From positions 57,309 to 121,308 of the forward strand of contig JAGBDV010000020.1 in the NCBI GenBank assembly GCA_017937305.1: 64,000 bases of DNA, read 5' to 3'. The notes beneath the pieces were generated by a model. The model was not told the DNA's origin. It did not search any database and saw nothing but the letters and a program-made list of their open reading frames with translations. The position numbers were made by a program, and so were the translations under genes. Position 1 is the stretch's first letter. Each line of letters begins with the position of its first letter. Positions 3,001-63,883 of this stretch are shown here, piece after piece. Origin of the DNA: Bacilli bacterium. Lineage in GTDB: Bacteria > Bacillota_I > Bacilli_A > ML615J-28 > CAG-313.

Positions 3001-6000
3001 ATATTTCTAATTTAACATTTGTTAATATTTATGTATATGATTCAACTGTTAACGTTGGTAATGTAAGTACAGTTGCTCCATTTGAATTAAATGTTGATGG
3101 TTCTAATTTTGTTTCTGATGTATTAATCGCTAATTCTAAGATTATTACAAGCAACATTTCAAATGACCGTCCAATGATCGTTTATGCAACTAATATTAAG
3201 AACTTAACTATGGATAATAACTCATTTGTTGGTAGAAGAGTTAACTACAATGATGCTGTTAAACTTGGTAATGGTGCTTCTGTTGGTGTTACTGGTAATT
3301 TAATCATTACTAACAACTATTTTGAAAACTATGCTCAATACTTAATTTGGTTACAAAAATTTGGTGCTGTTAATGTATTAGTTGAAAACAATACATTCTT
3401 AAATAATGGTCAAACTGCAGGTTCTCACTGTGCTATCAGATTCCAAGCATATACTGGTGCTGCTACTGATGAAGTTAACTGTGAAATGTACTACAATACA
3501 GTTGATAATTCATACTTGTTATTAAAAGTTGATGCTGCTCCTGATGGTGCTAAATTTGTATGTAATTATAATACTGTTCAAAATAGTAAAGATACTCTTA
3601 TTGTTAAGAATGCTACTAAAGCTACTGTAACTTGTGATAGCAACTACTGGGCATTTGATTCTGTAACTGATGCAATGTTCGTTAATGCTACTCATACTAA
3701 CGATTTAACTGATGCTGAATCAATTCCTTCAAAAGAAGAATCTTGGTTAGAAGGTAAATTAATCGTTGGTGCTGATGCTGCTTATAAGACTCTTGCTGAA
3801 GCTTTAGCTGCTGCTAAAGAAGGCGATGAAATTTATTTAACAGCTGGTACTTATGATGAAGCTGTAACAATCACTGTTGCTAACTTAACAATTTATGGTC
3901 CTAACCATGGTGTTGCTGGTACTGCTGAACGTGCTGCTGAAGCTGTTCTTGCTCAACCTTTAACAGTTGAAGCTGCAGGATTTACAGTTGATGGTGTTCA
4001 ATTTGGTGCTGGATGTAATGTAGTTGTTAAAGCTAATAATGCTACAATTACTAATGTTCATAGTGTATCTACTAAGTTTGCAAAAGCTGGTGGAACTAAC
4101 CGTACTGCTGTTGTAACAACATCTGGTAAAGTTTCTAACTTTGAATTATCTAACTCATTCTTCAATACAGGTGCATCTTCTTACTTAAAAGGTGTATTTG
4201 CTAATGATGAAGCTGTTACAAATGCATTATTCAAGAATAACTTCTTTACTCATGAAAATACTGATAACACTTCAATTTCAGACTGTATCGCAATGTATAA
4301 CTCTGCTGGTGTTATTGAATTTATCGGTAATACATTTGAATGGGTAACTGATGACTGGTGTATTATGTTAGGTTCTACTGGTTGTGCTGCTGATGTTATT
4401 AACGTAATTGATAATAACTTCATTGGTAAGACTGTTGATGGATCTGAACTTTATACTTGTGGTATTATGCTACGTTGTGCTCCTGCTGGTTCAAAAGTTA
4501 ATGTAATCCATAACTATTTTGGTACATTAGCTGGTACTATTATTTCTGGTAGAAATTCAAAAGCTGGTGCTGAATATAATATTAAATACAATGTATTTGA
4601 AAATATGACTTACCGTCAAGATTCATCTAATATTGGTTCTGCTGCATTCAATTATGAAGGTAACTATTATGGTAAACCTGTTCACTCAAGTGCTACATAT
4701 TGTACAGACTATGGTACAGTAACTGATAAAGCTGTTTGTGATGAATTATATGTTGCTTGGAAAGTTGTTCAAGAAATTGGTACTCCTGAAGTTTATTCTA
4801 ACTTAAGTTATGAATTAAATGGTGGTACAATTGCTGCTGGTTATGACGTTAAATACTTAGAAGGTCAAAAAGTTGCTCTTTATGGTGCTACTAAAGAAGG
4901 TTATAAATTCTTAGGTTGGTCATTAGATGCTGAAGGAACAAAAGTTTATAAAGAAATCCAAAAAGATTGGACTGGCGATATCAAACTTTATGCTCAATAT
5001 GCTGAAATCTTTGACGTTGAATACGATCTAGATGGTGGTGCTGCTGAAGGTTTAGTTACATCTGCTGTTGATGGTACTAAAGTTGAACTTCCTACTCCTG
5101 AAAAATACGGTCACATCTTCTTAGGATGGACTTTAGAAAAAGGAACTGAAGATTATATTAAGAGTGTTGTTGTTACTGCTGATACTAAACTTTATGCTAA
5201 TTGGTTAGAAGCTACATTCTTCTATGTAGATTATGAACTAAATGGTGGTAGTATCTTATATGCTTCAAGAGATGCATTAATCGCTGATTGGCTAGTAGAC
5301 TACAACCTAGTATTAGGTAAGAGCTATGCTTCTACTGCTGATATCGCTACAGGTAACTTTGCTGATATCGATTATCATACATTCTTAGATTCTAAGACTG
5401 TTCTTAACAATGGTCAAACTCCAAGAGAAAAATGGTTATGGTTAGCTGAATACTTATATGAATTATCTGTAAGAGATGTTGCTTCTAATAACTGTAACGT
5501 TCTTGGTTTAAGAGCTTTAATTAATCAAACTGGTTATAGTGGTGATGCTATTTATGGTGTATCTTATGCATTCCGTGCATTCTTATTAGGTAGAACAATT
5601 CGTCCTAATTCAAGTTATACTTCAGTTGACCATTCAGTTTATGAAAATGCTAATGGTTTCTGGGCTAAATTAAGTGCTTCTGAACCTAAGCATTATGGAT
5701 ACTATGAAGAAACAGTATTACCTGCTGCTAACTTAGAAAATTACAAGTTTGCTGGTTGGTATAAAGATGCTGAATTCACTGGTGAACCTGTTACTAAGGT
5801 TTCTCATGCTGATGATGGATTAAAACTTTATGCTAAATTCGTTGAAGCTACTCCTGTAACAAGTGTAACTATTGATAATAAATTTGCTGAAATGAAGAGA
5901 TTTGAAACTTACCAATTAACTTGGACAGTTAATCCTTCTGATGCAAGCATCCAACAAGTTGCATTCGCATCAAGCAATCCTGAAGTTGCTAGTGTTGATG

Positions 6001-16201: not shown

Positions 16202-17746
16202 ATGAGTTTACTTAATGTTACTAATGTAAGCCATGGATTTGGTGAAAGAGTTATATTAAAAAATGCATCATTTAGATTATTAAAAGGTGAACATATAGGG
16301 CTAGTTGGTGCTAATGGTGAAGGTAAATCTACCTTTATAAACATTTTAATGGGAAAAGAACTTCCAGAAGAAGGTAAAATTGAGTGGGCTAAACATTTAA
16401 AAGTTGGATACTTAGATCAATTTTCTTCACTTATACCAGGTGTGACAATTAGAGAAACACTTAGAACTGCATTTAAAGACATGTTTTTATATGAAGAAGA
16501 AATTAATAATCTTTACATGCAAATGGGTGAAATGACTGAAGAAGAAATGAATGAAGCATTAGAAGAAATTGGTGAAATGCAAAGTTATTTAGAAAATTCA
16601 GGTTTTTATCTAATTGATAGTAAAATAGAAGAAGTTGCATTTGGACTTGGACTTAAAGAAATTGGTCTAGACTCACTAGTAGATGAGTTATCTGGTGGGC
16701 AACGTGCAAAAGTTCTTTTAACAAAATTATTATTAGAAAATCCACAAGTATTAATTCTAGATGAACCGACTAACTTTTTAGATGAAATTCACGTTACATG
16801 GCTTAAAAACTATTTACTTAATTTTGAAAATGCATTTATTGTAATTTCACATGATGAAATCTTTTTAAATGAAGTTGTTAATGTTATTTATCATATTGAT
16901 AATGGGGTACTTACAAGATATTCTGGAAATCTTGATTATTTTAAACAGGCATATGAGGTTAAAATGCGTCAACTAGATGCTGCATATGAGGCTCAACAAA
17001 AAGAAATTGCAAAAATGGAAGATTTTATTGCCCGCAATAAAGCTAGAGTTGCAACACGTAGTATGGCAAATAGTAGACAAAAGAAACTTGACAAGATGGA
17101 ATTAATTGATAAAGGGAAAGAAAAGATTAAACCTCACTTTGTTTTTAAATTTTCTAAAACTACTGGTAAAGTATTATTTAGATGTGAAGATTTAGTTATT
17201 GGTTATGATAAACCTCTTTCTAAACCTATTAATTTAGAAATCTTAAGAGGTGAAAGAGTTGTTATTAAAGGTAGTAATGGTATAGGAAAAACTACTTTAG
17301 TAAAATCCTTAATAGGAGATTTAAAACCTATCAGTGGAAATGTTATAAAAAGTCCAGCTGTTGATATAAATTATTTTGAACAAGAAGCCCCTGGTAATAG
17401 AAATACTCCATTTGAAGAAATTAGGGATTCATTTCCAACTTTAAATAATGGTGAAATTCATTATTTCTTATCAGCATCAGGACTTACAAATCAAAATATT
17501 GAATCTCAAATTATTACTTTATCTGGTGGTGAAGCTGCAAAGGTAAGACTTTGTAAGTTAACTATTCAAGATAGTAATTGTTTAATTCTGGATGAACCAA
17601 CTAACCATTTAGATGTTCTTGCAAAAGAAGCTTTAAAAGAAGCTATAGAAGAATATGAAGGAACAGTTATTTTAGTTTGTCATGAACCTGATTTTTATGA
17701 AGGCTTAAATTTTAGAGTAATTGATGCTGAAAAACATAGTATTTAG
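16202..17746 (+). CDS. ABC-F family ATPase: two ABC domains with an ~80-aa interdomain linker and no TM domain.
   Basis: Two Walker A motifs (GANGEGKST, GSNGIGKTT) and two signature motifs (LSGGQRAK, LSGGEAAK). Subfamily (translation factor versus ARE) cannot be decided from sequence. Confidence 0.85.
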   Translation: MSLLNVTNVSHGFGERVILKNASFRLLKGEHIGLVGANGEGKSTFINILMGKELPEEGKIEWAKHLKVGYLDQFSSLIPGVTIRETLRTAFKDMFLYEEEINNLYMQMGEMTEEEMNEALEEIGEMQSYLENSGFYLIDSKIEEVAFGLGLKEIGLDSLVDELSGGQRAKVLLTKLLLENPQVLILDEPTNFLDEIHVTWLKNYLLNFENAFIVISHDEIFLNEVVNVIYHIDNGVLTRYSGNLDYFKQAYEVKMRQLDAAYEAQQKEIAKMEDFIARNKARVATRSMANSRQKKLDKMELIDKGKEKIKPHFVFKFSKTTGKVLFRCEDLVIGYDKPLSKPINLEILRGERVVIKGSNGIGKTTLVKSLIGDLKPISGNVIKSPAVDINYFEQEAPGNRNTPFEEIRDSFPTLNNGEIHYFLSASGLTNQNIESQIITLSGGEAAKVRLCKLTIQDSNCLILDEPTNHLDVLAKEALKEAIEEYEGTVILVCHEPDFYEGLNFRVIDAEKHSI

Positions 17747-36664: not shown

Positions 36665-38809
36665 ATGAAAAAAATTATTTGGTTAAGTATCATAGTATTT
36701 AGTTTACTCAGTTTTAGTTGTTCTAAAAAGCAATATGAAGTAAAATTTATAGGATTAAATGGTGAAATAATTGAGTCTTTTAAATTATTCAAAGATGATG
36801 AAGTTAATTATCCAGAGGCTCCTACTATTGAAGGCTATGATTTTATTAAATGGGATAAAGAAATTAAACATATAAGTGAAGATACAGTTATTACTGCTAT
36901 TTATGAAATTAAAACATATAATGTTAATTTCTATGATGAAAATGATGAGTTATTAGAAACTTTAAAAGTTTTATATAATTCTAGTGTTTCTTATAATCAT
37001 TTATTTAATGTTGAAGGTTATAGTTTTATTGGATGGGATAAGGATTTATCACATATTACGTGTGATTTAGATGTTAAACCTTTGTTTAGTAAGAAAACTT
37101 TTTCGGTTAAGTTTTTTGATGAAGCTGATATTTTAATTAAGGAAGAAATAGTTGAGTATGGTTCATCTGCAACACCTCCAAGTGATTTATCTAAAGAAGG
37201 ACACTCGTTTATTGGATGGGATACTGAGTTTACTAATGTACTTGCTAATCTTGTAGTGTATCCAGTGTTTGAACCACAAAAATTTACAGTTAATTTTTAT
37301 GATGAATCAGGAAAACTTTTAAAAGAAGAAATTGTTGATTATGGGACATCTGCAGAAGGAATATCTGCACCAAATAAAAATGGATATAAATTTGTTAGAT
37401 GGGATGAAGACATTAACAATATTACATCTAATTTAGATGTTTATCCAATTTATGAAGAACTAACTTTTACTGTTACTTTTGTTGATCAATATGGAGATGT
37501 TTTAAAAGTAGAAGAAGTTAAGTTTAAACAATCAGCTACTGCACCTGATGCTCCAGTGTTAGATTATTATAATTTTAATAAATGGGATTTAGATTTTAGT
37601 GAGGTTATGAATAATATGACAGTTAAAGCAATCTATACAAAAGAACAACAAACTTATAGTATTTCTAATGTTAATTACTGGTTGCAAATTTTATCATCTA
37701 AATATAATATAAATAAAACAATTTTAACTCCTAGTGAAATTAATAATTATAATGATAAAATTTTAAGTGATTATGCAAAAACTGAAGTTATGGATGTTTT
37801 AAGTATTACTGGTACTAAGACTCAAAGTTATGTTAAAAACTTAATTACTTCTTATGCAAATATTAATAAATATACAATATATAATGATTCTACAAAAGTA
37901 GCTTTAACAACTTCTGAAAAAGATACCATATTATCTAATCGTAATTTAACAAGCGTTCCTTCAACTGTTACTGTTAAATATGGTATAATATCTGATTTTG
38001 CGTGGCTAAGAAGTTATCCGACAAATCATTATTCTAATAATTATAGCATGGATAGATTCCAAGAAACATCTCTTAATGTTGGTGAAGGAGTTGCAATATA
38101 CCATGAAAGTTTAGATAAACAGTGGTATTTTGTACAAGCTGAAAACTATAATGGATGGATTGAAAAGAAGTATGTCGCAGAGTGTAGTTATGATGAATTA
38201 GAAGCGTTCTTAAAACCTCAAAATAGTTTGCTTGTCATTAGTGATTATGTAACATTAGAATCATCGCATGTTCGTATGGGACAAGTATTCCCGTTAGTAT
38301 CTAAAACTTTAGATTCATATACTATGAAGTTCCCTACAAGAAATAGTGATGGTAAACTTGTGTTAAAAGATTTAACTGTTGCAAAATCTAATGATTATCA
38401 TGAAGGGTATTTAGATTATACATATTACAATGTATTTAACCAAGCATTTAAACTACTTGGTATTGATTATAGCTGGGGTGATAAAGATAAACTTGGTCGT
38501 GACTGTTCATCAACAATGAATGCGATTTATAAGTGTTTTGGTTTTATGATGCCAAGAAATACTTCTAATCAAGTTGCTATTCCAACATATGGATCAAAGG
38601 TTAGTGGTTTAACTAATGCAACAGTTAGAAACTATAAACCAGGATCATTAATTTTTACATCTAGTCATGTAATGTTATATTTAGGTGAAAATGAAAGTGG
38701 TATAGCATATTTACTTCACAATACTACATCTGGAAATGGAGAATGTATTTTACAATCTTTAAATGACTACGGTGGAAGTAGAATTAATGGTGTATTAAAA
38801 CTTCAATAA
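36665..38809 (+). CDS. Surface lipoprotein: 7 Flg_new repeats, a middle domain, and C-terminal SH3b + NlpC/P60 peptidoglycan endopeptidase domain.
   Basis: Lipobox LSFSC. Repeats (F/V)xGWD. C-terminus carries GRDCSSTMN (catalytic Cys) and SHVMLYLG (His) of NlpC/P60, preceded by an SH3b-like YGIISDFAWLRSYP. Confidence 0.75.
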   Translation: MKKIIWLSIIVFSLLSFSCSKKQYEVKFIGLNGEIIESFKLFKDDEVNYPEAPTIEGYDFIKWDKEIKHISEDTVITAIYEIKTYNVNFYDENDELLETLKVLYNSSVSYNHLFNVEGYSFIGWDKDLSHITCDLDVKPLFSKKTFSVKFFDEADILIKEEIVEYGSSATPPSDLSKEGHSFIGWDTEFTNVLANLVVYPVFEPQKFTVNFYDESGKLLKEEIVDYGTSAEGISAPNKNGYKFVRWDEDINNITSNLDVYPIYEELTFTVTFVDQYGDVLKVEEVKFKQSATAPDAPVLDYYNFNKWDLDFSEVMNNMTVKAIYTKEQQTYSISNVNYWLQILSSKYNINKTILTPSEINNYNDKILSDYAKTEVMDVLSITGTKTQSYVKNLITSYANINKYTIYNDSTKVALTTSEKDTILSNRNLTSVPSTVTVKYGIISDFAWLRSYPTNHYSNNYSMDRFQETSLNVGEGVAIYHESLDKQWYFVQAENYNGWIEKKYVAECSYDELEAFLKPQNSLLVISDYVTLESSHVRMGQVFPLVSKTLDSYTMKFPTRNSDGKLVLKDLTVAKSNDYHEGYLDYTYYNVFNQAFKLLGIDYSWGDKDKLGRDCSSTMNAIYKCFGFMMPRNTSNQVAIPTYGSKVSGLTNATVRNYKPGSLIFTSSHVMLYLGENESGIAYLLHNTTSGNGECILQSLNDYGGSRINGVLKLQ

Positions 38810-38816
38810 AATATTT

Positions 38817-38848
38817 AAGCATTAAATAGAAATATTTAATGCTTTTTA
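38817..38848 (+). terminator. Rho-independent terminator.
   Basis: aagcattaaata-gaaa-tatttaatgctt followed by tttt. Confidence 0.8.
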
Positions 38849-52496: not shown

Positions 52497-53239
52497 TGGT
52501 AAAAGAGAATTTAAAAGTAATTTATAATAAACAAATTGCTCTTGATACATTTGAAATGAAATTAGAAACTCTTAATATGGCATCTTTTGCAAAACCAGGA
52601 ATGTTTATTAATATTTCATTAAATGATGCATCTAAATTATTAAAAAGACCTATTTCGATTTGTCAAATTGATAATAATCATTTAATCATTACTTATAAAA
52701 TTAATGGTGAAGGAACTAAAATTTTATCAACTTATCAAAGTGGAACATCTTTAGAAGCTATTGGACCACTTGGTAATGGATTTACTTTAGTTGAAAATAA
52801 AAAAACACTAGTAGTTGGTGGAGGAATTGGTGTTCCACCACTACTAGAGCTATCTAGAAATCTAAAGAAATTAGGTAATGAATTAGTAATTATTCTTGCA
52901 TTTAGAAATAAAGAAGCAATGATTTATTTAGATGAATTTAAAAAGCTAGGTGAAGTAGCAGTAACTACTGATGATGGATCATTTGGATTTAAAGGTAATG
53001 CACTTGATTATTTACATAATAATAATATTGAATTTGATACATTATATAGTTGTGGCCCTGAAATTCTTTTAAAGAAATTAGAAGAAAAATATCAAGGATT
53101 TGAAGGTTATCTATCTTATGAAGCAAGAATGGCATGTGGTGTGGGCCTTTGTCATGGGTGTGTAAAGGGTGAAAAACATTACTGTGTATGTACAGATGGA
53201 CCTGTATTTAAGTTAGGAGTTATCTATGGCGAATGTTAG
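52496..53239 (+). CDS. pyrK: Dihydroorotate dehydrogenase electron-transfer subunit (FAD/2Fe-2S).
   Basis: FNR-like fold and C-terminal [10 protein letters not shown]...C cluster. Confidence 0.85.
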
Positions 53240-54140
53240 AGTAAAATTACCAGGTCTTGATTTAAAAAATCCTATTATTCCAGCTAGTGGAACTGCAGGA
53301 TTTGGTGAAGAACTTGCTAGTATTTATGATTTAAGTGTTCTTGGTGGTATTATGATTAAAGCTACAAGTGTTAATCCAAAAAGAGGAAATAAAACACCAA
53401 GAGTTGCAGAAACATATGGTGGAATGCTTAATTCAATTGGTCTTGAAAATCCTGGCTTAGATGTTGTAATAAATGAAAAGTTACCATTTCTAGCTAAATA
53501 TGATACTTGTGTTATCGCAAATATTTGTGGTGATTCTATTGATGAATATGTAAAAGTAGCATATGAAATTAGTAGAGTAGATAATGTAGCTGCACTAGAA
53601 CTAAATATTAGTTGTCCTAATGTTCATGGTGGAGGGATTCCATTTGGAGCAGATGAAGAAACTGTTTATGAAATTACTAAAAGAGTAAAAGAAGCATCTA
53701 TTAAACCAGTTTATGTAAAACTTAGTCCAAATGTAACTGATATTGTTAAAATGGCAAAAGCAGCTGAACGTGGCGGTGCAGATGGTCTTTCTTTAATTAA
53801 TACACTTCTTGGTATGAGAATAGACTTAAAAACAGGACGTCCTATTTTATATAATAAAAAAGGTGGATTTTCTGGGCCTGCAATTAAACCTGTTGCAATA
53901 AGAATGATTTATGATGTTTATGAAGCAGTAAATATTCCTATTATAGGTATGGGTGGTATTGCAACTGTTGATGATTGTATTGAATTCTTAATGGCTGGTG
54001 CATCGGCACTTGGTGTTGGTACAATGAATTTAGTAAATCCATATATTTGTAAAGAATTAGTAGAAGAACTACCTCTTGCTCTTGCAAAGTATGGTTTTAA
54101 AGATATAAATGAGTGCATTGGTTATGCACATCGAAAATAG
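53226..54140 (+). CDS. pyrD: Dihydroorotate dehydrogenase catalytic subunit (class 1B).
   Basis: [18 protein letters not shown] (catalytic Cys) and GIATVDD blocks. Confidence 0.9.
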
Positions 54141-54154
54141 GAGGGAAGATTAAA

Positions 54155-54850
54155 ATGGTTATTATCGCATTAGATTTTAAAGATATGGAAACTTCATTAA
54201 ATTTCTTAGATAAATTTAATGAATCATTATATGTTAAAGTTGGTATGGAATTATTTTATGGTTCAGGACTTGAAATTGTAAAAGAAATAAAAAAACGTGG
54301 ACATAAAATCTTTTTAGATTTAAAACTTCATGATATTCCTAATACTGTTAAAAAAGCTATGACTAATCTTGCAAGACTTGGTGTAGATATTATTAACTTA
54401 CATGCTGCTGGTGGTTCAAAAATGATGGCTGCAGCACTTGAAGGTTTAACTGAAGGTTCAACTGGAAAACGTCCTATTTTAATAGCTGTAACTCAACTTA
54501 CTTCAACATCTAAAGAAATGATGAATACTGAACAACTAATTCCAGGTGAAGTGATTGATTCTGTAGTTAATTATGCAAAAGTTTCAAAAGAATCAGGACT
54601 TGATGGTATTGTATGTTCACCACTTGAAGTAGAAAAAGTAAAAGAAGCTTGTGGTAAAGAATTTGTAACTGTTACACCAGGAATTCGTCTTGCATCTAAT
54701 AATGCTGATGATCAAGTTAGAATTACAACACCAGCAAAAGCTAGAGAAATTGGCTCTGATTATATTGTTGTAGGTCGTCCTATTACACAAGCAGAAAATC
54801 CAGTTGAAGCATATCATTTAATTTTAAAGGAGTTTTTAGGAAATGAGTAG
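54155..54850 (+). CDS. pyrF: Orotidine-5'-phosphate decarboxylase.
   Basis: [18 protein letters not shown] and VVGRPI motifs. ATG 54155 with GGAGGGAAG RBS; the tracked 54113 start is a GTG inside pyrD. Confidence 0.9.
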
Positions 54851-55463
54851 TGTAGAAAAGAATTTACTTAAGATTAAAGCAGTATTTTTAAGTCCTAAAG
54901 CACCATTTACATGGGCTAGTGGAATTAAATCTCCAATTTACTGTGACAATAGATTAGTTTTATCATATCCAGAAGTAAGATGTGAAATTGAACATGCATT
55001 AGCAGATTTAGTAAAAGAAAAATTCCCAGAATGTGAAATTTTAATGGGTACTGCAACAGCAGGTATTCCTCATGCTGCATATGTTTCAGAATATTTAGGT
55101 CTTCCTATGGGGTATGTAAGAAGTGGAAATAAAGATCATGGTCGTCAAAATAAAATTGAAGGGCACTATGAAAAAGGTGATAAAGTAGTAGTAGTTGAAG
55201 ATTTAATCTCTACTGGTAAATCAAGTATTGAAGTAGTTAACTCTTTAATTGAAGCAGGTGTAGAAGTAATTGGTTGTGTTGCAATCTTCTCATATGGTTT
55301 TGATGAAGCACAAAGTGCATTTGACCAAGTAAATGTTCCATATTATTCACTTGCTAACTTTAATAATCTAGTTAAAGTAGCAGTAGAAGAAGGTTACATC
55401 GAACAAGAAGATCTAGAAGATGTATTAGAATGGAGAAAATCTCCACGTACTTGGAGAGCATAA
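54843..55463 (+). CDS. pyrE: Orotate phosphoribosyltransferase.
   Basis: PRPP-binding motif [13 protein letters not shown]. Confidence 0.9.
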
Positions 55464-57149: not shown

Positions 57150-57177
57150 AATTCAAATTTTTGAATTCTAGCTCTTA
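57141..57177. terminator. Bidirectional terminator (17-bp palindrome around an EcoRI-like core).
   Basis: aagagctagaattcaaa-ttt-ttgaattctagctctt. Confidence 0.8.
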
Positions 57178-58473
57178 TTCATTAAATAATAATGTAATTT
57201 CAAATGTAGTTTTTGTAACAGCATAGTCAAGTGTAATGTTATTTCTTTTTGCGAATAATTCAATAGATTTTGTACCAAAACCATGCTCTTCTTTATCATT
57301 TGTTGGTAAATTATTTGTATCAAAACTAATATTACCATCATATTTATTTTTAATTTGTAAAATTAAACGTCCATTATTGTTTAGGAAGATAAATGTAACA
57401 GCTCTATTGTTCTTAAGCTTAAGGGATGCATTAATTGCATTATCTAAACAGTTAGATATTACGACTACGATTTCATTAGATGGAATTGTAAGTAGTTCTT
57501 CGAAGTTATTAATTTTAGTCTTAAAATTAATATCATTATTAATACATTGTTGTTCATAGTATTCAAGTACTGAATTAATAAGTGGATCATTACAATATCT
57601 TTTTCGTTTTGTATTTTCAATAGAAACATTATATGAATTAATTAATTCTTGTGCTTGTTCTATTTCGCCATTATTAATAAGTGTTGAAATAGTAACTAAT
57701 ACATGTTTCATATCATGTCTTAAAATTCTAAGTTCATTATCACTTTGAGCTTTAAGTTCTGAAATTTCAATTATATTTTCTATTTGTTTATTTAAAATCT
57801 CTGTATCAAAATTATTAATTAATTCTTTTTGATAACTTTTTAAAAACATATAAAATCCAGTAATTGAAACTGTATATACGCTTAATAATGCAAGACTAAA
57901 GATATTAATTTTAAGTACATTTTGTGTTGTAGTACTTATAATATTTTGGTATAGGCCAATTTCAGCAAACATTGCAACACCATAAAGAAGAAGAAGCCAT
58001 AACATTTTAGGAAGTGATGATTCAACAATATTATGTAGTTTATTATAGAAGAAATTTAAATATATAGCTGCTAAAGGGAAACAAGTAACATAGATAATCC
58101 CTCTATATAATATAGCGTTATCAGCAAACTTTAGACCAACTGCTTCAATTAATACAACAAAATATGTAAGTAAAAAGGCATTAACTATTCCTGTAAATAA
58201 AGATAATCCTTTTCTTTTTCCAATTATAAATACTAATAGTGCTTCAGGTATAAAAATACCTAAAATATTCCAAATTAATACTTTTTCAAGTTTGAAAAAT
58301 TCAAATATGTATGAATTAATGATTAGTATTGCAAGAGTAATTGGAATAACAAGTAATAATGTTTTAATTTTAGAAAATCTACTACCTGATACAATTAGTA
58401 ATAATAACATACTAAATGCAGCAGTAATTAATGTTGGAATTAACTCAAATATCTGTGTCATATTATTCACCAA
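57175..58473 (-). CDS. Sensor histidine kinase, AgrC/HPK10-like (polytopic N-terminal sensor + GHKL ATPase).
   Basis: About six N-terminal TM helices. H-box LRHDMKHVL. N-box/G-box region NCLDNAINAS ... GFGTKS. Confidence 0.75.
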   Translation of the reverse strand: MVNNMTQIFELIPTLITAAFSMLLLLIVSGSRFSKIKTLLLVIPITLAILIINSYIFEFFKLEKVLIWNILGIFIPEALLVFIIGKRKGLSLFTGIVNAFLLTYFVVLIEAVGLKFADNAILYRGIIYVTCFPLAAIYLNFFYNKLHNIVESSLPKMLWLLLLYGVAMFAEIGLYQNIISTTTQNVLKINIFSLALLSVYTVSITGFYMFLKSYQKELINNFDTEILNKQIENIIEISELKAQSDNELRILRHDMKHVLVTISTLINNGEIEQAQELINSYNVSIENTKRKRYCNDPLINSVLEYYEQQCINNDINFKTKINNFEELLTIPSNEIVVVISNCLDNAINASLKLKNNRAVTFIFLNNNGRLILQIKNKYDGNISFDTNNLPTNDKEEHGFGTKSIELFAKRNNITLDYAVTKTTFEITLLFNE

Positions 58474-59194
58474 TTAAATACTTTATGTATTCTTTCTTAA
58501 TACTTGAAAAATTTCTTTTTGCAATAGGAACGACAAAACCATTTTTCATTATAAATGATCCATCTTCAATTGCTTTTACATGATTCATATTAACAATAAA
58601 TGAGGCATGACAACTAATAAAATTATAGTTTTCATAATTAAATGGAATAGAATCTAAAAACTTAGTTCTAAGTGCCGTAGATGTAATAGATTCACCAGTA
58701 ATTAAGTGAATTACAATACGACGATCTATTGATTCAATAAAACATACTTCATTTATTTCAATAGATAAAATATTAAGTGTTTGTGTCTTAAAATTAAATG
58801 TATTTTTAGTACGATAATTAAAATTAATTGATAAATCATCAAGTACTGCATTCATTTGTTCTTCTGCAATAGGTTTAATCAAATAATGGTACGCTTTAAC
58901 AGTAAAAGCATCTACTGCAAATTCAGAAGAAGTTGTTGTAAAAATTATTACAGCATCAGGAGACACTTCTCTTATTTTTCTAGCAGTTTCAATACCATTT
59001 ATTTGCATGATTACATCAAGAAAATAAATATCAAACCCTGTATTATTAGGAAGATTTATTAATCTAATTAAATTAGCAGGATTATCAAAACAACTAATAT
59101 CTACATTAACTTGTACTTTTTGATAGTATGAAGAAACTAACTTTTTAGTATTCTCAAGTTCTAATAAACTATCATCACATATAGCTATTCGCAT
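58463..59194 (-). CDS. Response regulator, LytTR DNA-binding family (AgrA/ComE-like).
   Basis: REC domain (IAICDDS..., DVIMQINGIE, IIFTT) plus C-terminal LytTR domain (FIESIDRRIVIHL...SCHASFIVNMNHV). Confidence 0.8.
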   Translation of the reverse strand: MRIAICDDSLLELENTKKLVSSYYQKVQVNVDISCFDNPANLIRLINLPNNTGFDIYFLDVIMQINGIETARKIREVSPDAVIIFTTTSSEFAVDAFTVKAYHYLIKPIAEEQMNAVLDDLSINFNYRTKNTFNFKTQTLNILSIEINEVCFIESIDRRIVIHLITGESITSTALRTKFLDSIPFNYENYNFISCHASFIVNMNHVKAIEDGSFIMKNGFVVPIAKRNFSSIKKEYIKYLIGE

Positions 59195-59341
59195 AAGTAT
59201 TACCTCTTTTTCTACTTATATTATACCACTATTTTTAATATTAGTCAAATTGTAAATAAATAATAAATTAAATCAAAAAAAGTAAAAAAAGATAACCTAA
59301 AAAGGAAAAAATTGTTAATTAATTTACAAAATAATTTTCAT

Positions 59342-59371
59342 ATTTTCACATTTAAATGTCGAATTTTCACA
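59342..59371 (+). promoter_or_regulatory. LytTR-type operator: two perfect 9-bp direct repeats ATTTTCACA separated by exactly 12 bp, plus a third imperfect copy (ATTTTCATA, 59334-59342).
   Basis: Repeat 1 at 59342-59350, repeat 2 at 59363-59371. Ends 5 bp before the -35 of the downstream promoter. Confidence 0.7.
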
Positions 59372-59376
59372 CCAAA

Positions 59377-59405
59377 TTGACTATTAAGTACTAATTTGTT
59401 ATAAT
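59377..59405 (+). promoter_or_regulatory. Near-consensus sigma-A promoter: TTGACT, 17 bp, TATAAT.
   Basis: -35 at 59377-59382 and -10 at 59400-59405. Drives the 59480.. operon. Divergent from the LytTR regulator gene. Confidence 0.65.
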
Positions 59406-59479
59406 ATGAAAGTAAAGTGAGAAGAGTATACACATCTATCACTTTTTAAAACTTAAACTAATATAAAGGAGAAATTATT

Positions 59480-60247
59480 ATGAAAAGAAAAAGTTTAACA
59501 ATGATTCTATGTTTATTAACTTGCTTATCATTAGTAGGCGTAGGGTTCGCGTCTTGGGTTATTAGCTCAGGCGATAAAGAAACTGTATCGGGAAATGTTG
59601 TTGTAGATACTGTTTCGGATGAACGTATTGTTCTTACAGTTACTGAACCAGGTGTTAAGGATATTAAATTTGTTGGTCCATCATCTACAACTACTGCAGA
59701 TGGTTGGTTAACTACTGATAATAAAGCAGCTAACTTAGAAGTTACTTATGCTTGTACAGTTTCTAAAAAGACTGGTTCGTTTACATCTACTAGCGAAATT
59801 GCAACACCTTTAGCCACTTTAGTAGAACCTACAGAGAGTACATATACTACTGCTAAAACAAAAGGTTGTTTTGAATTGTCAACAGATGTTGGTGTTACTG
59901 CAGCTACATTAGATAAATTCTATCAAGGTATTAAAATTTCTACACCTACTCTTGAAGATGGCAAAATCAAGTTTAACGTGACAGTTCAATATAAATGGGG
60001 TTCTGAATTCGGTGGAATTAATCCGTTTGATTATTACAATGAATTAAAAACTGGTGTAAATCCTACATTTGTTAGAGACGTTAATGCAACATGTGGAGAA
60101 GCTGTAGATACAATTTCAGCTGAAGACGCTACTTGGGGAGATCATGCTTATTATTATTTAGATTTATTATCAAAATTAGATAGTAATGGTGCTACAGAAG
60201 GTGGTTTATTAAGTTATAGTTTAACTATTCAAGTTGACTTTGCTTAA
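59480..60247 (+). CDS. Secreted TasA-sized protein (255 aa) with SipW-cognate-like signal peptide; paralog 1.
   Basis: MKRK-hydrophobic-GVGFASWVISSGD (the TasA family has GGTWAAFND). Ser/Thr/Val-rich beta-region. C-terminal KWGSEFGGINPFDYYNE is shared with the next gene. Confidence 0.6.
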   Translation: MKRKSLTMILCLLTCLSLVGVGFASWVISSGDKETVSGNVVVDTVSDERIVLTVTEPGVKDIKFVGPSSTTTADGWLTTDNKAANLEVTYACTVSKKTGSFTSTSEIATPLATLVEPTESTYTTAKTKGCFELSTDVGVTAATLDKFYQGIKISTPTLEDGKIKFNVTVQYKWGSEFGGINPFDYYNELKTGVNPTFVRDVNATCGEAVDTISAEDATWGDHAYYYLDLLSKLDSNGATEGGLLSYSLTIQVDFA

Positions 60248-60285
60248 TAGTTATTTATAAAAATAATTTAGGAGGCTAGAAAATT

Positions 60286-61062
60286 ATGGCTAGATTAACA
60301 AAGAATTCTTATAAGAGAAAGATTATATTATTTGGTTTATTAGTTTTCATGTCTATCGCATTAATTTCTACAGGTTTTGCTGCATGGGTTATGTCAACTA
60401 ATGCAACAAATGATGATGCTAATGGAAATGTTTCTGTTGGTGTTGTTAAAGATGCAAGTTTAACAATTTCTAATGTTGTTATTTCATCTACTGAAAAGAG
60501 CTTTAGATTTGAACCTTTAGCTTCAGATGAATCAGGTCGTGTAAGATATGATGATGAAGAAGGTTTATATGAAAACTTAAGCATTACTGTTACAGGTCAA
60601 GTTGCACCTATTGAATATTTAGGTGAATTAAAGTATGAACTTGTTATTCCTGAATCTGTTAAGAAAGCTGCTGATGCTGGTTACATTGTTTTACCAGATT
60701 CTGCTACTTATCAATATCAAGATGGTGAAGGAAACACTGTTAAAGTTGGCAGTGGTACAGTACTTGCTGTTAGCGGAACTGAAGGTACATTTAATTTCAC
60801 ATTTACAATTGATTTTAAATGGGGTGCTAAATTTGGCAATATGAACCCTGGTTTATACTATGATACTGATGCTGCTGGAATGTTGATTTCAGATGCAGAA
60901 TGTAAGAAAGAATTACAAGATTTTAGAGCATTATTATATGGTTATGATGCAGAAATGACTGCTGCTGGTAGTGATGAAGCAGCTAGAGATACTGTTGCAG
61001 AAAATCATAAGAATGATGCTGGTCCAGTATTTACAGTATTAATTACAGCTAAGAGTAACTAA
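60286..61062 (+). CDS. Secreted TasA-sized protein (258 aa) with SipW-cognate-like signal peptide; paralog 2.
   Basis: ...STGFAAWVMSTNA, GNVSVGVVKDASLTI (paralog 1 has GNVVVDTVSDERIVLTV) and KWGAKFGNMNPGLYYDTD. Confidence 0.6.
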   Translation: MARLTKNSYKRKIILFGLLVFMSIALISTGFAAWVMSTNATNDDANGNVSVGVVKDASLTISNVVISSTEKSFRFEPLASDESGRVRYDDEEGLYENLSITVTGQVAPIEYLGELKYELVIPESVKKAADAGYIVLPDSATYQYQDGEGNTVKVGSGTVLAVSGTEGTFNFTFTIDFKWGAKFGNMNPGLYYDTDAAGMLISDAECKKELQDFRALLYGYDAEMTAAGSDEAARDTVAENHKNDAGPVFTVLITAKSN

Positions 61063-61074
61063 TAACTTATAGTT

Positions 61075-62079
61075 ATGAAGTCTACAGAAATTATTTCGCT
61101 CATAGTTACTTTCATTGGGATATTTAGTTTTGCTACTATATTTACAATTTTATATGGTAATTATGCATCAATGTCAATTAAAGAATTAAAGTCTGGTAAA
61201 CGTGACATTGAATTGATTGATGAAGTAGTCTATGAAAGACAAGAAAAAGTTAAAAGACGTAATGAAATAGTTGTTACTATTAAAAATGTGTTCTTTTATT
61301 TAACTTTATTTATTGTTGTACCTGTTTTTATCTTTTCACTTATTAGTAGATTTACTAATAATGCAATAATGATAGGTGATAGAACAGTTATGGTTGTCGC
61401 ATCTGGTTCAATGAGTTATAAAGCTGAAACTAATGATTATTTAGTAACTAATAACTTAAACGATCAATTTTCAAAATATGATATTATTATTCTAGAAAAA
61501 GTTGACAGTGCGGCTGAACTTAAAGTTTATGACACTATTGCTTTTGTAAATGATAAAGGTACAAATATCATTCATAGAATTAAGTCAATTAAATATGATG
61601 GAAGTTATGAAACTAGAGGCGATGCTGTAGAAGTAAGTGATAGTTATAATCCTGTTTTTCCTGATGTTATCGGAAGATATACAGGAAAAAAGATTGGTGG
61701 TATAGGAATGTTTGTTTTATTCTTCCAATCTTATGCGGGGATTATTACAATTGTTTCACTTGTTTATTGTTTATTAATGATTGATCGAATGTCTGAGAAA
61801 ATAAACAAGGTACAATTAGAAAGAATTGAGTACTTAGAAAAAGCTTTAGGTTTACTTGATGAAACTGAAGCTAAAGCTATGCAAGCTGCTTATTCTGAAA
61901 CTATTTATTATAAAGGTTTTGCTTATCAATTTAAAGATGGTGAATTCATCTCTAAAGATGAAATTAAGGATAGCCTTTATTTAGAAAAGTCTTCAAATAC
62001 AATTATTAAAGAAGTTACAAGTGGTGACTCTTGTGTTATTGAAGAAGAAATAATCAAAAATGACGAACAGGGAGAATAG
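61075..62079 (+). CDS. Signal peptidase I, SipW (archaeal/ER) type, with two extra N-terminal TM helices and a C-terminal TM plus coiled-coil extension.
   Basis: VVASGSMS (Ser motif), IIILEK, NIIHRIKS (His motif), RGDAVE. Confidence 0.7.
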   Translation: MKSTEIISLIVTFIGIFSFATIFTILYGNYASMSIKELKSGKRDIELIDEVVYERQEKVKRRNEIVVTIKNVFFYLTLFIVVPVFIFSLISRFTNNAIMIGDRTVMVVASGSMSYKAETNDYLVTNNLNDQFSKYDIIILEKVDSAAELKVYDTIAFVNDKGTNIIHRIKSIKYDGSYETRGDAVEVSDSYNPVFPDVIGRYTGKKIGGIGMFVLFFQSYAGIITIVSLVYCLLMIDRMSEKINKVQLERIEYLEKALGLLDETEAKAMQAAYSETIYYKGFAYQFKDGEFISKDEIKDSLYLEKSSNTIIKEVTSGDSCVIEEEIIKNDEQGE

Positions 62080-62083
62080 TGTT

Positions 62084-63883
62084 ATGAAAAAACCCTATTA
62101 TACAAGAAAAGATTTGATTGTTATCTCTTTAGCTGTATTCTATGCATTTGTTTTAATCTTTGTTGGAATGTGTTTAGAAGGAACATATTCATTCGTTAGT
62201 AGTAAAAATCCAATTGCTGCAATGGGTAAAGGATTAAGTTTCAAAACAATAGAATGTGGATTATCTGGATTTATTTGCTTAGTACTTGTTGCATTATATG
62301 TTGCAGTATTTACAGCAGTATTCATGTATGAAAGAAGATATGCAATCGTAACTAACAAGAAAACTTATGGAATTAAGATGATTATTACTTACATCTTATC
62401 ATTCCTTGCATGTGGTGTTATTTCTTTAGGTGTTGGTATTTTAATTCAAAAACCACTTACATGGGATAATATCAGTCTTGTATTATTATATGTTGGTCAA
62501 TCTTTAATTCTAACTACAATTATTTATGTTGTATTATTTGCTTTATTTGGTGGTGTAATTATGTTTGTTGTCAATTTCTTATTAATTGATAAACCATTTA
62601 AAGCATTTGAAGATAATACAGAAATTAAAGTATTAGAAGAAGATGATCCTGAAGTTGATATTACAAGTAGTTTTGATGCAAATATTGATGGTGCTACTGC
62701 TACTGGTGGTGTTGCTGCTGCTGGGGCTCCTGGTGCTGCAGGTGCATCTGAAAGTATCGTTCGTTCTGCTGAAGAACTTGACGATCGTGAAAAAGTATTC
62801 CCAGCACTTTCTACAGTTGATGTAGATTATGATGGGTATGTAGTTGATCATATCGAAAGTGAACAATTCTCTTTAGAAGAAATTTGTGTTAAGTTTAGAA
62901 ATTATCTTGCTAAAGAAGAAAAATTATACTTTGATATTGATACAATTCGTTATTTTATCAGTGCTTTAGGTACTTCTCACTTTATGATTTTAGAAGGCTT
63001 ATCTGGTACTGGTAAATCAAGTTTACCACGTTATTTTGCTAAATTTATTAATGCTGAAGTATTATTTATTCCAGTTCAAGCAACTTGGCGTGATAAGACT
63101 AACCTTATTGGTTTCTTTAATGAATTCTCTAAGACTTATACTGAAAGTGAATTCTTAATTAAACTATATAAAGCTAATTACAACCCTGATGTTCCTCATT
63201 TCTTCGTACTAGATGAAATGAACATCTCGCGTGTTGAATATTACTTTGCAGATTTCCTATCAGTTCTTGAATATCCAGAAGAAGATTGGAAATTAAAGAT
63301 TATGCAATTACCATATAACTTTATTCCACCTGCAAAATTAGAAGAAGGTATTATTCAAATACCTAATAACTCATATTTTGTTGGTACAGCTAATAAGGAT
63401 GACTCAACATTCACTATTACTGATAAAGTATATGACCGTGCTATTTCAATCGATTTTGATAATCGTAATGATGCATTTACTGTAAATGAAGAAGTATCAA
63501 CAATTACTATTAGTAATTCACATCTTCAATCACTATATAATGCAGCTAAGAATGAAGATGCTAACCGTATGAATGATGCTGATTATGCTAAATTCACTAA
63601 GATTACTGATTATATTTATGATCAATTTGATCTTACATTCGGTAACCGTATCTTAACACAAATTGACAACCTAGTGCCTATTTTTGTGGCATGTGGTGGT
63701 ACAAAAGAAGATGCTTTAGACTTCTTATTATCACGTAAAGTTATTTATAAACTAGAAGGTCGTTTTGAAGAATATGTTAAAGGTGCTTTAAAAGAACTTC
63801 TTGCTTTAATTGAAAAGACTTACGGTGCATCTGTTTTAAAACGTAGTGAAAAGACTATTAAAAGTTTAATGAGAAGGTTGTAA
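62084..63883 (+). CDS. Membrane-anchored McrB-family (AAA_5) AAA+ NTPase: ~5 TM N-terminal domain, Gly/Ala-rich linker, C-terminal McrB-like domain.
   Basis: Walker A GLSGTGKSS. Walker B/McrB motif FFVLDEMNISRVEYYFADFLSVLE (E. coli McrB has IIDEINRANLSKVFGEVMMLME). YFVGTANKDDSTFTITDKVYDRAISIDF matches McrB YIIGLMNTADRS...RRRFSF. ATG 62084 with GGGAGAA RBS. Confidence 0.65.
   Translation: MKKPYYTRKDLIVISLAVFYAFVLIFVGMCLEGTYSFVSSKNPIAAMGKGLSFKTIECGLSGFICLVLVALYVAVFTAVFMYERRYAIVTNKKTYGIKMIITYILSFLACGVISLGVGILIQKPLTWDNISLVLLYVGQSLILTTIIYVVLFALFGGVIMFVVNFLLIDKPFKAFEDNTEIKVLEEDDPEVDITSSFDANIDGATATGGVAAAGAPGAAGASESIVRSAEELDDREKVFPALSTVDVDYDGYVVDHIESEQFSLEEICVKFRNYLAKEEKLYFDIDTIRYFISALGTSHFMILEGLSGTGKSSLPRYFAKFINAEVLFIPVQATWRDKTNLIGFFNEFSKTYTESEFLIKLYKANYNPDVPHFFVLDEMNISRVEYYFADFLSVLEYPEEDWKLKIMQLPYNFIPPAKLEEGIIQIPNNSYFVGTANKDDSTFTITDKVYDRAISIDFDNRNDAFTVNEEVSTITISNSHLQSLYNAAKNEDANRMNDADYAKFTKITDYIYDQFDLTFGNRILTQIDNLVPIFVACGGTKEDALDFLLSRKVIYKLEGRFEEYVKGALKELLALIEKTYGASVLKRSEKTIKSLMRRL

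Follow-up and report, generated by a model that had tools for sequence, protein, structure and literature searches.

A conserved tandem operator, probably that of a divergent LytTR response regulator, upstream of a secreted-protein operon in an uncultured Bacilli lineage

The window analysed here, a 64-kb stretch of DNA with 28% GC, contains an intergenic region of 285 bp and 18.6% GC from which a two-component gene pair and an operon for secreted proteins diverge (Table 1). The gene of the pair nearest to this region encodes a response regulator that exceeds the Pfam cut-offs for both of its domains (Response_reg, 44.3 bits against 30.2; LytTR, 42.5 against 22.6), matches ComE and LytTR-domain structures, and carries receiver residues D7, D8, D60 and K107 that are invariant across 25 orthologs. 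A preliminary description of this DNA had placed a divergent LytTR response regulator some 150 bp from a pair of direct repeats, and its start codon indeed lies 147 bp from the first of them. The adjoining kinase likely starts at the ATG at 58461; inspection by eye suggests about seven transmembrane segments, and behind them comes a GHKL domain like those of AgrC/VirS kinases. The neighbours of the locus are TMEM164- and VTT-family membrane proteins and, upstream at 53226-55463, pyrimidine biosynthesis genes (pyrD-, pyrF- and pyrE-like); these pyrimidine genes are neighbours also in two related MAGs, L081 and L088, where synteny thus extends over the whole region.

Table 1. Features of the locus in window coordinates, with box sequences from four distant lineages
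Feature	Position	Strand	Basis or remark
Cognate histidine kinase	57175..58473	-	HATPase_c_5 E = 3.6e-14; synteny in orthologs
LytTR-type response regulator, presumed box binder	58463..59194	-	Pfam, orthologs
Promoter of regulator-kinase operon, TTGACT-17-TGGTATAAT	59220..59248	-	conserved in orthologs
Conserved block AAAGGAAAAAATTG (consensus AGGAAAnnATnG)	59301..59314	.	between the two promoters; close clade only
ATTTTCATA, proposed earlier as a third copy	59334..59342	+	5' flank and 5' part of box 1
Box 1, promoter-distal, CATATTTTCACA	59339..59350	+	encloses repeat 1
Repeat 1, ATTTTCACA	59342-59350	+	direct reading of sequence
Box 2, promoter-proximal, CGAATTTTCACA	59360..59371	+	encloses repeat 2
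Repeat 2, ATTTTCACA	59363-59371	+	direct reading of sequence
-35 hexamer TTGACT	59377..59382	+	5 bp after repeat 2
Extended -10, TGTTATAAT	59397..59405	+	TATAAT 59400-59405, preceded by TGT; 17-bp spacer from -35
Predicted 5' untranslated leader	59412..59479	+	ribosome-binding site GGAG 59468-71; start near 59412 inferred from -10
Target gene 1, secreted/membrane-anchored protein	59480..60247	+	invariant N-terminal GFA-W; without known family
Target gene 2, paralogue of gene 1	60286..61062	+	25% identity, E = 1e-11
Target gene 3, divergent SipW/archaeal-type signal peptidase I	61075..62079	+	below-cut-off model matches
Target gene 4, multi-pass membrane protein with C-terminal AAA+ domain, weakly McrB-like	62060..63883	+	
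Boxes in lineage L001, AAAATACAC / AAAATGCAC			period 21
Boxes in lineage L027, ATTTTGTGCAAAA twice	5784-5820 (of L027)		period 21
Boxes in lineage L090, TTCTACACA / TTTTCACA			period 21
Boxes in lineage L218, ATTACACA / TTTTACACA			period 21

The operon on the other side comprises four closely spaced or overlapping genes (59480-63883), and its counterparts beside orthologous regulators encode one or two secreted paralogues, then a SipW-like peptidase and a membrane AAA+ protein, and continue with a fifth gene, which corresponds to sequence beyond the end of the window. A hypothetical protein from a 'Bacilli bacterium' MAG has the same sequence (100% identity) as the product of gene 1, whose AlphaFold2 (AF2) model is confident (pLDDT 87.8) and beta-rich, and gave neither a fold match nor a sequence match in the PDB. 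In both secreted paralogues the GFA-W motif follows a hydrophobic N-terminal segment, a placement that presumably recalls SipW-type signal peptides such as those of TasA and CalY. Searches of Pfam and NCBIfam assigned the paralogues to no family, and no TasA/camelysin (Peptidase_M73) substrate was found in the operon by Pfam, NCBIfam or PDB matching. The small family they form has about 60 clusters, all from uncultured gut-type Bacilli. Gene 3 matches NF046067 SipW (E = 1.7e-11, 44 bits against a cut-off of 190) and TIGR02228 (E = 6.5e-11, 42.3 bits against 51.85), with an SGSM Ser motif visible in its sequence. Gene 4 encodes 607 residues with N-terminal membrane segments and a below-cut-off match to AAA_5 (E = 0.0015), the closest solved relatives of its AAA+ domain being McrB chains (E = 1e-3).

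Upstream of this operon the 9-mer ATTTTCACA occurs twice with 12 nt (tttaaatgtcga) in between. On re-reading, the repeats and the gap reported in the preliminary description proved exact to the base, as did its placing of the downstream repeat 5 bp before a -35 hexamer that is followed by a 17-bp spacer and TATAAT. Alignment of seven orthologous intergenic regions shows that the invariant bases are C59339, A59340, T59345 and CACA 59347-50 in box 1 and C59360, G59361, T59366 and CACA 59368-71 in box 2, each of the latter exactly 21 bp from its counterpart. Because an identical invariant pattern (C-R-N4-T-N-CACA) thus recurs in both boxes with a 21-bp shift, the conserved operator unit, judged from this alignment, is a bipartite box of about 12 bp, C-R-W-W-W-W-T-N-C-A-C-A, rather than the 9-mer.

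The third degenerate copy that had been proposed immediately upstream does lie where it was said to lie, and as an independent site it is ruled out. ATTTTCATA overlaps repeat 1 by a single base. Only L086 retains it, L081 does so in part, and L083, L087, L088 and L089 lack it; within it only C-A (59339-40), the counterpart of C-G in box 2, is conserved, and its 8-bp offset does not suit 21-bp two-turn phasing. A candidate third box in phase, 21 bp upstream (59317-29), scored -16 bits and is not conserved.

In published LytTR sites the repeats measure 8-13 bp, are separated by about 12 bp (PMC4064291) and lie 4-11 bp upstream of the -35, often combined with an extended -10 (PMC6193735). The arrangement here shows the same geometry: two direct repeats, whether counted as the 9-mer or as the conserved 12-bp box, a 12-bp spacer whose 21-bp period is kept in 11 of 12 lineages, a proximal repeat 5 bp upstream of the -35, and a LytTR-domain regulator at the locus. 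The classical LytTR consensus of Nikolskaya and Galperin (from 2002) is said to be [TA][AC][CA]GTTN[AG][TG], with a GTT core, and this core is absent both from ATTTTCACA and from the 12-bp box. The label of a textbook LytTR operator given to the site earlier is hence apt for its spacing, which fits the published one, and not for its sequence, which lacks the GTT of the AgrA/ComE/PlnC consensus. LytTR repeats are known to be poorly conserved in sequence between orthologs, and functional sites can diverge from the consensus (PMC6193735). The LytTR domain of AgrA touches two consecutive major grooves (PMC8481266), which fits a bipartite box spanning about one helical turn.

How much of this could arise by chance depends on the scale considered. 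Exact ATTTTCACA is found in the 64 kb only at these two places, and a pair position-weight matrix built from the 14 half-sites of the seven close intergenic regions scores 41 bits at the operator; elsewhere in the window it stays below 4 bits, apart from one pair (16 bits at 59357) that reuses box 2. If any 9-mer is allowed, three distinct places in the window show an exact repeat with a 12-bp spacer, and shuffles yield 1.57 on average, so that the exact repeat is not significant window-wide; repeats are cheap at so low a GC content. The other exact 9/10-mer direct repeats with this spacer, whose number is at chance level, lie at 16540-16569 and 38809-38839 and consist of AGAAGAAAT, and of AAATATTTAA around GCATTAAATAG. 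The full pair with up to three mismatches was found once against 0.87 expected in the window, which makes that test uninformative. The concern, raised in the preliminary description, that such a repeat pair might be frequent by chance is reasonable where the bare pattern is concerned. Shuffles of the 285-bp intergenic region give P = 0.013 for an exact repeat of at least 9 nt at period 21 and P = 0.0011 when the repeat must hold at least two G/C, and the degenerate core WTNCACA-N14-WTNCACA occurs once in the window against 0.10 expected. A general repeat search of the region did not report the direct repeat. In metagenomes, TTTCACA-N14-TTTCACA gave more than 120 matches, only two of which adjoin a LytTR gene, so the bare 14-base pattern is not diagnostic; the scan returned mostly unrelated matches, recovering only the Agathobaculum case described below and no further regulon members. 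The exact repeat by itself is suggestive rather than decisive, becomes significant given its location, and is made convincing as an operator by the comparative data.

These comparative data come from a compact set of regulator orthologs (43-98% identity) in uncultured Acholeplasmatales, Anaeroplasma and 'Bacilli bacterium' MAGs. The genomic context of the orthologs places the regulator-kinase pair divergent from the same operon in 12 lineages, and 11 of the 12 carry two boxes 21 bp apart that end 26-29 nt before the -10; the sole exception, L003, has the same synteny and no clear boxes. The close alignment combines seven intergenic regions whose regulators are 55-83% identical to that of the window. 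With a mean column identity of 58% and many gaps, its conservation is confined to a few islands, namely the regulator's promoter, the block at 59301-59314, box 1, box 2, TTGAC, TATAAT and GTAAAnTG at the presumed transcription start. The main reading of the preliminary description, that the repeats are the operator of the adjacent regulator, gains support from this footprint in 11 of 12 orthologous lineages together with the published geometry. Orthologous regulators with other neighbours (L002, L004, L005, L094, L096 and L219) showed no convincing boxes.

Where the regulators are 45-50% identical, the sequence of the boxes drifts, and the 21-bp period and the distance of 26-29 nt to a TGn-extended -10 persist. 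In L027 the boxes are nearly palindromic and of ambiguous orientation, the opposite strand giving the better fit to the CACA-type core. An orthologous regulator-kinase pair (48% identity) in L092 (5785-6000) lies beside an operon in which genes for an ABC transporter, a 12-TM protein, a large protein and a prepilin-type (N_methyl) protein replace the secreted-protein operon; its boxes, CTATTTTTGCAA / CCATTTTTTCAC, again have period 21 and lie 26 nt before TGATATAAT. Agathobaculum (L063 1300-1327, L071 1928-1955, L099 and L137) carries CCGATTTCACA / CCAATTTCACA with period 21 and N9/10 between them, ending 29 nt before the -10. These boxes are flanked on one side by a LytTR regulator only 32% identical to that of the window and on the other by a short divergent gene (about 75-93 codons, containing SPETGAY), which places the same box class in a distant lineage. 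Judged from such gene orders, it is the regulator that the boxes accompany, rather than the target operon.

Further elements lie near the boxes. The block between the two promoters has invariant alignment positions A107, G110, A112-114, A117 and G120 in the seven intergenic regions, and in six of these its distance to box 1 is constant; it could serve as a second promoter, bind some other factor or be a weak inverted half-box. L081 and L083 have a TATAAT-like hexamer before the corresponding block. A 22-codon ORF (59312-59380, TTG start) covers the two boxes and terminates in the -35. L081 retains it, in L083 and L086 its start reads TCG, and it is probably not a gene. An inverted repeat pairs box 1 (59336-59350) with the -10 region (59397-59411) at 13 of 15 positions and is not conserved in orthologs, probably a chance by-product of AT-rich sequence.

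The core of the operon's promoter is itself strong in appearance. TTGAC and TATAAT are invariant in the seven close orthologs. Counting both strands, the window holds five sites with TG, a 17-bp spacer and 11 of 12 matches; TTGACT-17-TGTTATAAT is one of them, which puts it among the best sigma-70 matches there, and the promoter of the regulator is another. AgrA-dependent promoters owe their dependence to spacers of 18 and 20 bp and become AgrA-independent at 17 bp (PMC4227749). A suboptimal core of this kind was found only in distant orthologs; the near-consensus core and 17-bp spacer weaken the regulator-dependent activation predicted in the preliminary description and make strict dependence on the regulator uncertain in the window's clade, and basal transcription may be high with a modest effect of the regulator. 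All distant lineages have the TGn-extended -10 and lack the -35, and in five of them the boxes precede promoters with the extended -10 only, a classic activator-dependent layout owing to which activation is still favoured. Activation by the phosphorylated regulator is thus the best reading and likely. The leader RNA region had no match in Rfam, and its hairpin is no better than in shuffles (z = -0.43).

We consider it probable that the boxes at 59339-50 and 59360-71 form the tandem operator of the divergent LytTR regulator. From sequence, conservation, domains and synteny we infer binding, phosphorylation and direction of regulation in the following scheme. The membrane kinase would sense a signal and phosphorylate the regulator on Asp60. 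Two regulator molecules would then occupy the boxes head-to-tail on the same face of the DNA, the 21-bp period corresponding to two helical turns, with each LytTR domain predicted, by analogy with AgrA, to read C-R and then T-N-CACA about 8 bp further on in two successive major grooves. The bound dimer, spanning about -75 to -41 and ending 5 bp before the -35, would stimulate RNA polymerase at 59377-59405, so that the promoter drives expression of the two paralogous secreted proteins, the SipW-like peptidase and the membrane AAA+ protein, together with at least one more gene.

The regulator's own promoter differs from that of its presumed target. A position-weight-matrix scan found no boxes near 59220-59248 and no other box in the region, and the operator lies about 95 bp from the -35 hexamer of this promoter and faces away from it. 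A conserved promoter free of boxes suggests constitutive expression with no positive feedback. In the neighbourhood of the kinase-regulator pair there are no agrB/agrD-, comC- or ABC-exporter-like genes, and no conservation is seen for the small ORFs of the flanking gaps. Neither hallmark of an Agr-type module, linked pheromone genes or an operator at the regulator's promoter, is thus present at this locus. With a promoter that lacks boxes and no pheromone gene nearby, the circuit looks like a one-target sensor of the kind of VirSR or LytSR/BtsSR and not like a self-amplifying, autoinducing quorum-sensing loop.

Other explanations share parts of this evidence. The adjacent regulator might bind the boxes only to modulate or repress a consensus promoter that fires constitutively, for example with its unphosphorylated form damping transcription by occupying the UP-element/alpha-CTD region, or might merely fine-tune it. 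We hold this to be unlikely, since the boxes stay clear of the -35, the -10 and the start site, and the five distant lineages with an extended -10 only have the layout typical of activator dependence. A negative role would nevertheless suit the near-perfect core promoter with its TTGAC-17-TATAAT in seven close orthologs, and there are precedents, PlnD and unphosphorylated ComE acting negatively. AgrA, too, can repress, as at bsaA, and its promoters are activator-independent at a 17-bp spacer (PMC4227749); against this, 5 bp upstream of the -35 is a position described for LytTR activators (PMC6193735).

The element might also be real and conserved yet recognised by a different DNA-binding protein encoded elsewhere, with the LytTR neighbour coincidental. 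Such a protein would account for a box without the classical GTT core, and the conserved block at 59301-59314 shows that other factors may act in the region; even so, a 21-bp direct-repeat architecture is a LytTR hallmark, the boxes follow the regulator gene in L092 where the operon differs, and the same box type stands beside an unrelated LytTR regulator in Agathobaculum, which leaves this explanation quite improbable. That the repeat is a functionless chance feature of very AT-rich intergenic DNA seems hardly credible to us. It is true that the window has three places with exact 9-mer pairs at a 12-bp spacing where 1.6 are expected, that allowing up to three mismatches in the full pattern reveals no enrichment, and that the bare pattern is common in metagenomes; yet P is about 0.001-0.013 for this intergenic region, the same base pattern is found in both boxes across seven diverged regions, and the period and the -10 distance are kept in 11 of 12 lineages. 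The regulators concerned are 45-83% identical, so the regions are not recent copies of one sequence, and chance is effectively refuted by the comparative data. The reading that we prefer remains an operator of the adjacent regulator, most likely an activating one.

A wider interpretation, which we put forward as speculation and think doubtful, is that the box C-R-W4-T-N-CACA marks an undescribed LytTR specificity class common to Acholeplasmatales-like gut Bacilli and Agathobaculum. In the window's clade, that class would control, via an orphan AgrC/VirS-type kinase and no linked pheromone, an unrecognised extracellular system of two novel-fold secreted proteins with SipW-like processing and handling by the membrane McrB-like AAA+ protein. 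Were this so, the consensus core would imply that the regulator acts beyond simple recruitment, for instance by relieving silencing of AT-rich DNA. More soberly, the operator is, to judge by its conservation, real and maintained in evolution, and it adds an example of LytTR control rather than a new principle. Its value lies in a concrete assignment of regulator, operator and target in an uncultured, very AT-rich gut Bacilli lineage in which gene regulation is almost unstudied; it marks a conserved five-gene operon as the presumed output of a signal-transduction pathway, and the 12-bp box definition with its variants from about a dozen lineages is a possible seed for regulon searches. The interest stems mainly from the uncharacterised operon under the operator's presumed control.

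Among known systems, the tapA-sipW-tasA operon of Bacillus subtilis couples a SipW-type peptidase with its secreted substrates and is activated by RemA, a protein with a LytTR-related DNA-binding fold (PMC8481266); the present operon, whose peptidase stays below the SipW model cut-off, may be comparable. RemA, in contrast, is an octameric ring and not a response regulator, and the secreted proteins here lack a TasA/camelysin domain, so we draw this parallel as an analogy only. The LytTR Regulatory Systems of the HdrR-BrsR type (Streptococcus mutans and others) share the 12-bp spacing, the distance of 4-11 bp to the -35 and the variation of the repeats between orthologs (PMC6193735). Their regulators, however, lack a receiver, are partnered with a membrane inhibitor and autoactivate, whereas here a classical kinase/regulator pair is without autoregulatory boxes.

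The AgrA repeat is ACAGTTAAG-like and is not matched by the boxes here. In other respects AgrA at agr P2/P3 of Staphylococcus aureus is similar: a receiver-LytTR dimer binds two direct repeats, 12 bp apart in a divergent intergenic region, and activates from a position upstream of the -35 (PMC4227749; PMC4064291). The agr promoters P2 and P3 have suboptimal spacers of 18 and 20 bp, in contrast to the 17 bp and consensus hexamers at this locus, and agr is autoregulated and linked to agrBD, unlike the regulator here, which has a promoter without boxes and no agrB/agrD-like neighbour.

More closely related in form are the VirR boxes of the Clostridium perfringens VirS/VirR system (pfoA, vrr, ccp and netB), which are likewise two imperfect 12-bp direct repeats with a 21-bp period upstream of the promoter (PMC2688746). 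The motif is CCAnTT-N15-CCAGTT-N3-CAc, with the same 21-bp period and boxes that end in CAC (PMC4963840; PMC4747519). The VirR box, too, has two parts: its 5' element carries C at position 2 and T at position 6, and three variable bases and CA(C) follow, so that TCGAAT-ttt-CAC here can be set against CCAGTT-nnn-CAC there. The CCAGTT (proximal) and CCAnTT (distal) cores of VirR are absent from our locus, which has TCGAAT and TCATAT. The regulator is not a VirR orthologue, the Arg position of the VirR FxRxHrS motif being a Ser here (FISCHAS, as read from the sequence), and the VirR targets are unrelated to the present operon. Like VirS/VirR, the locus pairs a LytTR regulator with an AgrC/VirS-class kinase of about seven transmembrane segments, with no pheromone gene beside the two-component genes. 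Taken as sequence motifs, the boxes do not match the AgrA/ComE consensus, and their architecture is closest to that of the VirR motif.
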